Source of the DNA: Candidatus Omnitrophota bacterium
Lineage (GTDB): Bacteria > Omnitrophota > Gorgyraeia > JACQQV01
DNA: 64,000 nucleotides
Direction of reading: 5' to 3'
NCBI GenBank assembly: GCA_016206785.1
Contig: JACQQV010000021.1
Span: 63,509 to 127,508, forward strand
A model generated the notes under the pieces. It did not search any database. It was given only the letters and a program-made list of their open reading frames with translations, and was not told where the DNA came from. Positions 12,127-35,824 of this stretch are shown piece by piece (position 1 is the stretch's first letter; each line of letters begins with the position of its first letter). A program made the translations under genes and the position numbers.

Positions 12127-12147
12127 CTCATTCGTCGTTCGGCGTTC

Positions 12148-12248
12148 GGGACTAAGTCCCTATGACGGTAAGACTTGTTCCTTGCCAAGGCGGGACTTAG
12201 TCCCGCCTTCATGGGGGGAAAGTCTAAGGCGAAGAGGGACTTAGTCCC
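12148..12248. repeat. three copies of the 13-nt palindromic motif GGGACT(W)AGTCCC at exact 44-bp spacing between convergent genes
   Basis: Copies at 12148-12160 (GGGACTAAGTCCC), 12192-12204 and 12236-12248 (GGGACTTAGTCCC). The middle copy is embedded in a 25-nt near-perfect palindrome, CAAGGCGGGACT-T-AGTCCCGCCTTC. Confidence 0.6.
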
Positions 12249-12350
12249 GGTTTGCTCTGTTTGCTGTTTAGGACAGGTAAGCGGTGCTCGAACCACACCA
12301 GGGGCTACTTATCCTTGGGGACAAATTAGAGCCAGGTCGGAAAACGTCCC

Positions 12351-33118: not shown

Positions 33119-33742
33119 TCAGGCGTGGGGTTCTTGGGTTAAGATCGGGAGAAGTTCTCCGATAAACCGTTTTGCTGTTATGAGGGATTCCTCTTCACTC
33201 TTTGAAATCGGAACGATGATCCGGACCATAGCCCCTCCCAATCCCTTACCGGTCGCTTGCTTCATGACCCACCGGATCTGCTGAGTGAAGTAATCATTGG
33301 TGAATTCCTTGCCCAACATGTACCAATAGAGAACGACGTTTTGGCTCTTTCCCTCTCCGGCAAGGAGTCGGTTTACCGTTAGGGTTTGACCGGGAAAGGA
33401 AAGACTCTCCTTCGTCGTCTTTGTGACAGAAACCCCGCTTCCAATCAGACAGACGACCGGAGGATGGCAGACACGGCGGTTGGTTTCGGAATAGATCACA
33501 AACAGATCAACGGATTCACCCTTTTTGTTTCGATACTGCCGCAGGGCCAAATTCCTTGTTTCAAGAATCTCGTAATCATGGTCGGAGACGGCGACGTCAC
33601 TTGCTTTCCATTCACCGATCTCCATCGGAATTTCGCGGATGTCCCGAATATCCTTCTCCACCCTCTGCATCTGGTAAAAGTGGAAGGAAATGGCACCGAC
33701 GATGACGAAAAGGAAACTGCTGACAACCCAATGCTTCTTCAT
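33119..33742 (-). CDS. EpsI-family exosortase-associated protein, 207 aa
   Basis: N-terminal TM helix. ...GESVDLFVIYSETNRRVCHPPVVCLIGSGVSV... matches the EpsI signature. It overlaps the exosortase gene stop by 4 nt. Confidence 0.7.
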   Translation of the reverse strand: MKKHWVVSSFLFVIVGAISFHFYQMQRVEKDIRDIREIPMEIGEWKASDVAVSDHDYEILETRNLALRQYRNKKGESVDLFVIYSETNRRVCHPPVVCLIGSGVSVTKTTKESLSFPGQTLTVNRLLAGEGKSQNVVLYWYMLGKEFTNDYFTQQIRWVMKQATGKGLGGAMVRIIVPISKSEEESLITAKRFIGELLPILTQEPHA

Positions 33743-34545
33743 CGGAGAATCCTTCCGACGGTGGAGAGGCCACCCAGTGCGAGTCCGAACACGACGAATC
33801 CGGAGAAATCATGAAAGAATTTGAGGGCCGCTTCAACGCCGTAGATATCGGCGATACCTGCAAGAAGGATGATGCGGACGATATTGGCAATCATGGCGAT
33901 CGGAATGGAAGAAAGGAAAAAGAGCGTTTTCCTCGGAAAAGAGGCCTGTTTGAGATACGCAAAAAGGACGCCGAGTGTCAGAAGCGACAAAAGCGACCGA
34001 AGGCCGCTACAGGGATCTTCCACCGCAACCACCGCATTTTTCATGTAGATCAGATGACCTTTTTGAAGAGCGGGAAACCCGATCGCATGAAGTACATGGG
34101 TCGCACACATCGCTGCGAAAAGTTTAAGACGCACCGTCGCCGTTCCAACGACCACGAGGGGAAACGGAACCATGAAAAGGAGAAAGATTATCGGAAAGGC
34201 CGCCGCCCGAAGCATCTTTTTCCCCCAGAGAAAAAGCACGAGTCCCGTGACGGTTAAGAGGATGGAGAAGGCCGAAGTGAAATAGACCTTGATCAAAGCA
34301 CTCACCAGATGGACCAAGAGTCCTGTGATCAGCAGAGGAAGGCCCCATCGGGAGGGCGAAGGAACGATAGTGGCGATCTCCTTCCGTTTACGCCAAACCA
34401 GATAAAGACTCACAAAGGGAATCAAGAATCCATGGCCGAAATAGGAATCTTTCGCGCTCCAACGGTCCACCATCCAGACAATCGTCGGGAAATAAGCGAA
34501 GGTGAGCAGAAGACTCATGACACCGAGTGAAATCCACTTTTTCAT
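33739..34545 (-). CDS. exosortase (EpsH/Xrt family)
   Basis: Polytopic membrane protein with the exosortase Cys motif AVEDPCSGLRSLLSLL and the Asn/Arg motif IANIVRIILLAGI. The likely start is MKKWISLGVMSLLLTF at about 34545. The track ORF's extra 24 N-terminal residues are translated from the upstream repeat region. Confidence 0.85.
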   Translation of the reverse strand: MKKWISLGVMSLLLTFAYFPTIVWMVDRWSAKDSYFGHGFLIPFVSLYLVWRKRKEIATIVPSPSRWGLPLLITGLLVHLVSALIKVYFTSAFSILLTVTGLVLFLWGKKMLRAAAFPIIFLLFMVPFPLVVVGTATVRLKLFAAMCATHVLHAIGFPALQKGHLIYMKNAVVAVEDPCSGLRSLLSLLTLGVLFAYLKQASFPRKTLFFLSSIPIAMIANIVRIILLAGIADIYGVEAALKFFHDFSGFVVFGLALGGLSTVGRILR

Positions 34546-34566
34546 AGGGCTGTCTTCCCGAAAAAT

Positions 34567-34694
34567 TCCAATAACCAAATCACAATGACCAAATAAGCTC
34601 CAATACCCAAATTCCAAACACCAAACCGAGGTTTAATTATTGGTGATTGGTTCTTGGTGATTATTTGGAACTTGGAATTTGGTGCTTGGTGATT
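34567..34694. repeat. imperfect palindrome built from degenerate heptad repeats: ACCAAAT-like units at 34567-34626, a central gaggtttaatta, then ATTTGGT/TTGGTGA-like units at 34639-34694
   Basis: Left arm is ccaataaccaaatcacaatgaccaaataagctccaatacccaaattccaaacaccaaacc. Right arm is ttggtgattggttcttggtgattatttggaacttggaatttggtgcttggtgattg. The arms are approximately reverse-complementary. The structure lies in the GT2-exosortase intergenic region. Confidence 0.6.
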
Positions 34695-34702
34695 GTTTCT
34701 CA

Positions 34703-35824
34703 TCATTGTGTTTTCCAAGTCACCTGCTGCTGTCGTGAAAGATAGCGATAAAGACCGACGAGGGCAGAGACATTTAAAAGACAGAAGACATACGGTTGAG
34801 AAAAAAGACGCCGTGCCTTTTGCGGTGCAACCGCTCCGAGAGTCGCACAGCCGTAAAAAGCGATCTGCAACATGAAAAAAATCCGGTAGAGGGGCTCATG
34901 GAGCAGGAAAAAATCGGATAAAAAGAGCGCGATCAAAAAGAAAGGCGCAAGAACCCTTAAGAGTTTGTGGGATATGAATTGAAGGGCGACGCGACTTCGG
35001 AAGGGATTGAGCATGGAAGAGAACTGCACAAAACTTTGATAATTCCCCGCCAGGGTTCTCACCTTCCGTTCATATTCCTGTCGTGGTGTGGAAGAGACAT
35101 CATCATACACCCATGCCCTTCCTTCAAAGAGGGTGCGGTATCCCTGAGAAACCACTTTCATCGGAAGATAAAGGTCGTCCAAGATCGTCTCTTCCGGCAT
35201 GGGATGATACAAAAGGCGGCGGATGGCATAGAGCGCTCCTGTGGCTCCGATCACAGAGCCCGCCTGACTCTCATGACCTCGGATGAATTTCTCATAGTTC
35301 CAATAGAATCCGAGTCCCTTCGCGACCGAGCCATTTGTTCCTTCAAGCACGAGTTCCCCACTGACACATCCCACCGCCGGGTCGCTGAAATTTCGAACCA
35401 AATGACGAATCGCCTGCCGATCGATCTTCTGTCGGGCGTCCGTAAAAACCAGAATCTCGCCTCTCGCCTGCTCAGCCAAGCCATTGAGCATCCGGGGTTT
35501 CCCCCCCCTTTCATTCAAAACGACAAGGCCAACCCTTTCCCCTTCGTACTGTGCCAAAATGCTTGCAGTATTGTCTGTGGAACCGTCGGAACCGACGAAG
35601 ATCTCAAGTTTATCCTCCGGATAGTCGAGGGAAAGAAGATTTTCCATTTTCTTGGCGATCACCTTCTCCTCATTAAAAGCAGAAAGAAGGACAGAGACAG
35701 AGGGTAAATGTTCTGAGGCCCGGACAGGACAAGGAAAGTACTTTGCCCAAATCCATAAAAGAAGCGGGTATCCTAAGTAAATATAAAAAAGTATCGTCGC
35801 TGAAACCCAGAAAAGAAAGGTCAT
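34703..35824 (-). CDS. family 2 glycosyltransferase (membrane-associated, cellulose-synthase-like), 373 aa
   Basis: Carries the GT2 motifs SVLLSAFNEE...DGSTD...VFTDA, with C-terminal TM segments. Confidence 0.8.
   Translation of the reverse strand: MTFLFWVSATILFYIYLGYPLLLWIWAKYFPCPVRASEHLPSVSVLLSAFNEEKVIAKKMENLLSLDYPEDKLEIFVGSDGSTDNTASILAQYEGERVGLVVLNERGGKPRMLNGLAEQARGEILVFTDARQKIDRQAIRHLVRNFSDPAVGCVSGELVLEGTNGSVAKGLGFYWNYEKFIRGHESQAGSVIGATGALYAIRRLLYHPMPEETILDDLYLPMKVVSQGYRTLFEGRAWVYDDVSSTPRQEYERKVRTLAGNYQSFVQFSSMLNPFRSRVALQFISHKLLRVLAPFFLIALFLSDFFLLHEPLYRIFFMLQIAFYGCATLGAVAPQKARRLFSQPYVFCLLNVSALVGLYRYLSRQQQVTWKTQ

Follow-up and report, generated by a model that had tools for sequence, protein, structure and literature searches.

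A heptad-repeat palindrome in an Omnitrophota exosortase operon, probably a copy of a dispersed intergenic repeat

Why does a palindrome of about 130 nt separate two genes that, in related loci, overlap or lie at most 34 nt apart? The question arises in the window, by which we mean the whole 64,000-nt stretch of an Omnitrophota contig analysed here. Around the palindrome, the minus strand encodes a polysaccharide deacetylase, a GT2 glycosyltransferase, an XrtA-like exosortase, EpsI, a sugar transferase and a PEP-CTERM protein. A first-pass annotation, made from the letters of the window, had placed the palindrome between the GT2 and exosortase genes and offered two roles for it: an attenuator or processing site within the operon, or a phased array of binding sites for a regulator. 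Our analysis points elsewhere. We consider it probable that a dispersed, non-autonomous palindromic repeat, comparable to MITE, REP or ERIC sequences, has placed a copy here, which the operon tolerates and possibly uses by way of read-through translation.

Architecture of the palindrome and the start of the exosortase gene

The palindrome proved to be real. It spans positions 34568-34696, the letters observed at 34567-34694 agree with the first description, and the centre measures 15 nt. Read in the direction of the transcript, which is the minus strand, about eight CCAA-type heptads lead into this centre and eight TTGG-type heptads lead out of it. The features on which the argument rests are as follows.

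34703..35824, minus strand: GT2 glycosyltransferase, 373 aa, upstream of the element
34547..34702, minus strand: the whole GT2-exosortase spacer holding the repeat, 156 nt (related loci: genes overlapping or at most 34 nt apart)
34640..34696, minus strand: transcript-5' arm with CCAA-core heptads, arranged as four units, 4 nt (TAAT) and three units; A/C-rich
34625..34639, minus strand: palindrome centre TAATTAAACCTCGGT, with inner bases predicted to give an apical stem and loop
34568..34624, minus strand: transcript-3' arm with TTGG-core heptads, arranged as four units, 4 nt (CTTA) and four units, one of them degenerate (TTGT)
34546..34617, minus strand: N-terminal exosortase extension MEFGYWSLFGHCDLVIGIFREDSP, translated from a TTG codon within the 3' arm and judged spurious
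33739..34545, minus strand: XrtA-like exosortase, 268 aa, downstream of the element

Within the 5' arm (34696 to 34640), CCAA recurs at offsets 7, 14, 21, 28, 39, 46 and 53, and the 57 nt contain 3 G and 19 C. In the 3' arm (34624 to 34568), TTGG stands at offsets 0, 7, 14, 21, 32, 46 and 53, with TTGT at offset 39. An inverted-repeat search gave 70 % complementarity over 60-nt arms. Each arm is made up of a 32-nt tandem duplication of 81 % identity, and Tandem Repeats Finder reported 3.4 copies with a 76 % match in the element and nothing more. The GC content of the roughly 130 nt is 38 %. Allowing up to one mismatch, the pattern TTGG-N3-TTGG-N3-TTGG occurred eight times in the 64-kb window, always within the element, against 0.6 expected by chance, and neither blastn-short nor nhmmer detected a second copy of the element in the window.

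The element is not an assembly artefact, since Logan contigs from three sequencing runs contain the identical sequence. In all three runs, the Logan contigs also break (L003 at its end; L008, L009 and L010 at their starts) at a single stretch of 28-29 nt within the 5' arm, CCAAATTCCAAGTTCCAAATAATCACCA, and this breakpoint fits a k-mer common to other copies or to the opposite arm. Elements of this kind break short-read assemblies. Elsewhere in the window, at 12147-12249, we observed an unrelated palindrome of 103 nt, with 51-nt arms that are 71 % complementary and GGGACTAAGTCCC hairpins as its boundaries.

The repeat also bears on the gene model downstream. The open reading frame list had given the exosortase 292 aa from a TTG codon at 34617, a start that the first-pass annotation had already thought spurious, being translated out of the repeat. 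We rejected the 292-aa model on three lines of evidence: NCBI annotates 268 aa from the ATG at 34545; close exosortase homologues mostly measure 259-278 aa, with query coverage of 94-100 %; and the Pfam exosortase domain begins at residue 12 of the 268-aa form. Judged by these comparisons, the true start is the ATG at 34545 and the TTG-start extension is spurious. The gene model is corrected to begin at 34545, and the case illustrates how gene callers draw false N-termini from such repeats.

Presence and absence at related loci and in metagenomes

If the palindrome served this operon in particular, it should accompany the operon. The first-pass annotation had itself named absence from orthologous loci as a finding that would tell against an attenuator or processing site, and absence is what we observed at five of the six related loci (L011, L005, L006, L007 and L001), with exosortases 84 %, 77 %, 78 %, 79 % and 71 % identical, respectively, to that of the window. 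In L011, L005, L007 and L001, GT2 either overlaps the exosortase gene or directly adjoins it; in L006 a spacer of 31 nt lies between the two. The element is present in L012 (exosortase identity 81 %), where it stands 5' of the exosortase and 3' of a c-di-GMP-I riboswitch, not after GT2. The window and L012 represent filled sites, while L011, L005, L007 and L001 represent empty ones. A further locus, L004, with an exosortase of 84 % identity, has no element and a 34-nt gap, the GT2 gene not being in view.

These junctions showed several other peculiarities. At L004:3-419, an unrelated ORF of at least 138 aa lies directly 5' of the exosortase and replaces GT2 or the element, and thus the GT2-exosortase junction has been remodelled repeatedly. 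At L022:365-449, which is the L012 locus, a terminator-like hairpin follows a c-di-GMP-I riboswitch that scores 41 bits against RF01051, more than the gathering score. Both the heptad element and the exosortase gene lie downstream of this riboswitch, so that c-di-GMP appears to control the exosortase operon there. The 31-nt spacer at L006:5001-5031, ATGATAAAAAACGAATGTGGGAGTTTCTCAATG, resembles the two ends of the element, left and right, fused to each other, and may be what remains of a lost copy; in the gene call it became a 10-residue N-terminal extension of the exosortase. Just 3' of the palindrome, window positions 34549-34563 (TTTCGGGAAGACAGC) are identical over 15 nt to L001:3954-3968, the 3' coding end of GT2 in the relative of 71 % identity, which hints at a duplicated gene end or past recombination. 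We left the duplicated-gene-end reading aside, as L012 matches poorly at this position.

A search for other arrays, which the first-pass annotation had recommended, gave none in the rest of the 64-kb window but was productive in metagenomes. We scanned JGI metagenomes with the aligned frame that is open in both the window and L012, in a procedure that includes a tblastn step. The scan reported 325 pattern-matching stretches and confirmed 16 loci, of which about 13 are distinct. All 16 carry the same palindrome, each in a different intergenic spacer, for example between valS and nadC, in the pepA-hemE-hemH region, upstream of polA, upstream of coxII, downstream of glgA and between convergent gene ends. 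Copies of the family are intergenic, occur in both orientations and are 110-160 nt long, with a GC content of 26-45 % compared with 45-66 % in their flanks. The GlgA protein encoded next to the L013 copy is 75 % identical to a protein from an Omnitrophota MAG, and the best named matches of the L018 CoxII protein are from Nitrospirota. By these protein similarities, the hosts of the family are Omnitrophota and probably Nitrospirota.

We also built a family profile from 12 copies, the window copy among them, with the following result in the window.

34558..34697, minus strand: family-profile match, sole copy in the 64-kb window; nhmmer E = 5.7e-37, a score that is partly circular because the window copy is one of the 12 profile members

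Several contigs carry more than one copy. In L019, two copies lie 1.2 kb apart; L021, L023 and L025 also have two per contig, and the profile search revealed diverged extra copies in L021, L023, L025 and L028. Sister elements occupy the next spacer on three of the same contigs.

L021:3513-3631: sister element
L023:4660-4772: sister element
L025:3892-4023: sister element

The sister cores are GACAA, TCAAA and CGAAA, and the common layout is four heptads, 4 nt and three to four heptads. Truncated copies were found in L014, L016 and L027. In the copy at L019:4208-4388, GC-rich hairpins (CCTGCC...GGCAGG, about 32 and 20 nt) are nested at mirror positions in both arms. They are missing from L023:3001-3128, which resembles this copy in both the element and the 3' flank and is its likely counterpart; the difference points to a second small hairpin that is mobile or to copying from one arm to the other.

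Three observations concern sequences around the edges of this family. The hemE-hemH spacer of L023 (1812-1915), at the place where L019 has the CCAA/TTGG element, holds another repeat palindrome with the polarity reversed: GGTT-type units lead and AACC-type units follow. A metagenome protein of 151 aa, P0362, is the translation of three consecutive heptad palindromes, which shows that the element also occurs in tandem arrays and that these are wrongly annotated as genes. On the IMG/VR viral contig L037, positions 948-1014 hold about nine TTGG heptads as one arm, without an inverted partner, and possibly code on the opposite strand.

Known sources of such a sequence were also considered. Blastn gave no match to the element in plasmid and phage sequences, nor, at E <= 0.01, in 5,426 E. 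coli genomes, and we rejected an origin from phage, plasmid or E. coli on this basis. A pattern scan of viral sequences gave chance matches and one single-armed array. Rfam 15 returned no match at gathering score in the window and, at permissive thresholds, nothing in the element beyond miRNA-hairpin noise (E > 0.3), so a known RNA family was rejected as well. The repeat family is apparently undescribed, with members in Omnitrophota and on a probable Nitrospirota contig.

The features expected of a mobile repeat were present in part. The element is small and carries no transposase gene, its sole ORF being a 54-aa read-through frame with no family match. Terminal inverted repeats are present, in that the whole element is palindromic; the termini read approximately ACGAAAT...ATTTCGT in L013-L015 and are degenerate in the window. 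No transposase or autonomous parent element was found among the loci examined, where domain scans covered eight ORFs adjacent to the element, and 5-6-mers shared by the two flanks occurred at the chance rate, giving no convincing target-site duplication. ATGA stands on both sides of the element in the window, L012 and L025 (ATGAA in L021), where it coincides with start and stop codons. We infer that the family spreads by transposition or a related copying mechanism. Because the element is a dispersed repeat, and because it sits in a junction that overlaps or abuts in relatives, we do not regard it as a regulator designed for this operon; on this reading, its hairpin carries no exosortase-specific regulatory message.

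Core conservation, folding and the frame through the element

We asked which parts of the element are kept. Across 15 copies, the core columns are 91 % identical and the spacer columns 69 % (p = 1e-11). When the window copy is set against its counterpart in L012, differences fall in 4 of 60 core columns and in 21 of 75 non-core columns (p = 0.0016). Thus, the cores are kept in place, and not merely at the time of copying. This in-place conservation, together with the recurrence of the architecture with other cores, is no less compatible with a selected function than with selfish spread.

Conservation of this kind lends some support to the second role named in the first-pass annotation, a phased array of binding sites. 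In its fullest form, a heptad-reading protein would bind one unit per heptad, and the elements would form a genome-wide regulatory layer, not selfish DNA. Candidates could be a cold-shock-domain protein, binding single-stranded RNA or DNA, or an omega-type ribbon-helix-helix repressor, binding duplex DNA. The heptad of the omega repressor is WATCACW; we examined the likeness of the AATCACC units to it and rejected it, as it fits just three of the eight units. Apart from the excess of conserved cores, seen both family-wide and between the window and L012, a binding array would account for the subfamilies in which other cores keep the scheme of four heptads, 4 nt and four heptads, as if protein and sites co-evolve, and for the retention of primary sequence in hosts of very different GC content. 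It would also match heptamer repeats near start codons, for which a partner protein has been proposed (PMC4679880; bioRxiv 10.1101/2022.06.06.494920). On the other hand, filled and empty sites, nested insertions, truncated copies and unrelated neighbours are the behaviour of a repeat element, and the conservation of the cores is equally explained by the upkeep of 4-bp helices. We regard a binding array as the main rival to the repeat reading, made plausible by the conserved cores and the parallel subfamilies, though on balance unlikely.

Next, we considered the RNA. The first-pass annotation had predicted a long imperfect hairpin in the mRNA, and the folding calculation that it had called for bears this out: the minus-strand RNA has a predicted energy of -49.4 kcal/mol (z = -4.4), and 0 of 200 shuffles folded as well. 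The plus strand reached -44.9 kcal/mol (z = -3.3). The predicted fold is an AT-rich stem of 4-bp CCAA:UUGG helices with 3x3 internal loops between them, and the family consensus from RNAalifold is a periodic ladder of 4-bp helices. Its pairs are invariant, with a covariation term of +0.92; because every consensus pair is invariant, the fold gives no evidence of covariation. Sense and antisense folding were equal across copies, with few G.U pairs, and nothing marks the element as a one-strand RNA. We rejected selection on RNA structure, given the invariant pairs and the similar folding of both strands.

The stability of the hairpin relative to shuffles could nonetheless speak for an operon-specific device, an attenuator or an RNase processing or stabilising site that sets the ratio of GT2 to exosortase. 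Such a site would suit the position of the element inside a co-directional string of genes, with no promoter-like or terminator-like site found near it. There are also precedents: REP, ERIC and Correia elements alter the stability of mRNA or are cleaved by RNase III or RNase E, and known MITEs act on mRNA by way of these enzymes (PMC10969869). On the other side, the element lacks the GC-rich stem and U-tract of a terminator, as well as covariation and a preference for the transcribed strand, and the same element recurs between unrelated genes and in convergent spacers. Taken with its absence from most related loci, this makes an operon-specific role improbable, and the part of the earlier proposal that assigned the hairpin to attenuation or processing in this operon is not upheld.

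A feature that had escaped the first reading is a single frame that stays open from one end of the element to the other and is linked by ATGA overlaps to the genes on both sides.

34542..34706, minus strand: ORF54, MMRNNHQAPNSKFQIITKNQSPIIKPRFGVWNLGIGAYLVIVIWLLEFFGKTAL, the sole frame open through the element, unannotated in any source

The ATG of ORF54 overlaps the stop codon of GT2, and its TGA overlaps the ATG of the exosortase. To judge how general this is, we used 13 copies flanked by co-directional genes. A spanning frame was open in 9 of 13 in the sense orientation and in 1 of 13 in the antisense orientation (Fisher p = 0.0036), in a small sample for which the tblastn step of the scan favours open frames in one orientation. 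Because a null made by shuffling spacers leaves about 50 % of copies open, only the asymmetry between sense and antisense is informative. In the window, L012, L018, L021 and L015, the spanning frame ends on a stop that overlaps the ATG of the next gene; in L016, L024, L025 and L025b the stop is 2-11 nt from that ATG. In two cases, the window and L025, the frame also starts on the stop of the preceding gene. There is no spanning ORF in L013, L019, L028, L021b and L023b, and the open frame of L019 lengthens hemE by about 10 codons.

Does ORF54 encode a protein in its own right? It might be a tail-anchored small membrane protein acting with the exosortase, the palindrome being incidental. The frame is open in both the window and L012, the C-terminal halves of the two products are alike (LGIGxYLxxVIWLL), a Shine-Dalgarno sequence, GGAGAGG, precedes the ATG in L012, and the stop overlaps the exosortase ATG in both loci. 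The product is polar in its N-terminal half (hydropathy -1.1) and hydrophobic in its C-terminal half (+1.5); however, this order is what any CA-rich/TG-rich palindrome gives when translated. The window and L012 differ by three 1-nt indels, which restore the frame at the end but leave the 15 residues in the middle read in different frames. Most family copies have stops in the ORF54 frame, and the frame of the 3' arm varies even among open copies. No domain match was found in Pfam or NCBIfam, there is no annotation, and a search of 1.84 billion representatives gave eight weak matches, all of them translated elements. Neither the same frame nor the same residues are kept across homologues, as they would be in a conserved small protein. 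With stops, frame changes and unrelated contexts throughout the family, we rejected a small-protein gene as the general explanation, and for ORF54 itself we regard it as very improbable.

We return to the reading that we favour, a tolerated copy of a dispersed repeat, and propose how the operon may live with it. The element would be co-transcribed with the operon, and its RNA would fold into the long hairpin of CCAA:UUGG helices. The G-poor, C-rich 5' arm, if left untranslated, would be exposed to Rho. Ribosomes leaving GT2 could translate ORF54, melt the hairpin, cover the C-rich arm and re-initiate at the exosortase AUG. We propose that the insertion is tolerated and the coupling of the genes kept because ORF54 is open across the element. 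In this model the act of translation would matter, and not the ORF54 peptide.

A bolder idea would extend this to the family as a whole. Heptad palindromes may be functional intergenic cassettes in more than one phylum, with cores selected for a heptad-reading protein (for example, one with a cold-shock domain) or for a periodic helix. The read-through ORFs would be relays that couple the flanking genes and shield the Rho-prone arm, and the subfamilies with other cores would be parallel versions. We offer this as speculation that deserves some weight, although we judge it unlikely. More generally, core conservation and bridging ORFs lead to a testable model of how compact operons survive insertions at overlapping stop/start junctions.

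Comparison with known repeats

ERIC, of about 127 bp in enterobacteria, and the Correia elements of Neisseria are intergenic palindromes of the MITE type. The heptad element shares with ERIC and other MITEs its length of about 130 nt, an imperfect palindrome from end to end, placement in operon spacers in either orientation, presence or absence at corresponding sites, more than one copy on some contigs and the lack of a transposase. It has no sequence similarity to ERIC, judged by the search of 5,426 E. coli genomes, and differs from it in the 7-nt periodicity of its arms, the 4-nt core and its Omnitrophota and probable Nitrospirota hosts; neither a target-site duplication nor a parent IS was found for it.

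The cyanobacterial STRR arrays include STRR2, with the unit TTGGTCA. The element shares its 7-nt unit with the heptamer arrays (STRR, TAACTGA and TTTTGAA). Like them, it is intergenic, often runs up to a start codon or stops beside one, and is scattered over phyla in a way that points to horizontal transfer; a binding partner is suspected for both. The TAACTGA arrays of Beggiatoaceae and the TTTTGAA arrays of Nostoc lie near start codons, and a binding partner has been proposed for them, cold-shock proteins included, at one per heptamer (PMC4679880; bioRxiv 10.1101/2022.06.06.494920). Those arrays consist of two to six near-identical head-to-tail units, whereas the element fixes 4 of 7 positions, has individually conserved spacers and runs to eight units followed by eight inverted ones in a fixed 4+4 arrangement.

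REP, BIME and REPIN sequences, mobilised by RAYT, are extragenic palindromes that form within-genome families in short spacers without target-site duplications (PMC3116915, PMC3733652). The heptad element is likewise extragenic and fills short co-directional or convergent spacers. REP sequences, in contrast, are 20-40 bp long and GC-rich with a GTAG or CGTC tag, and the element is 130 nt long, AT-rich and without such a tag. It appears to represent an undescribed repeat superfamily of poorly studied phyla, one that joins the palindromic intergenic repeats with the heptamer arrays beside start codons.

Finally, Rickettsia palindromic elements (RPE) remain translatable where they insert (PMC10969869). 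RPE and the heptad element have no sequence relation and occur in different taxa, and yet both are palindromes, roughly 100-150 bp in length, that leave a frame open to the ribosome, so that the gene arrangement of the host survives the insertion. RPE lie in frame within genes and become part of the host protein, whereas the frame of the heptad element forms a separate bridge between genes.
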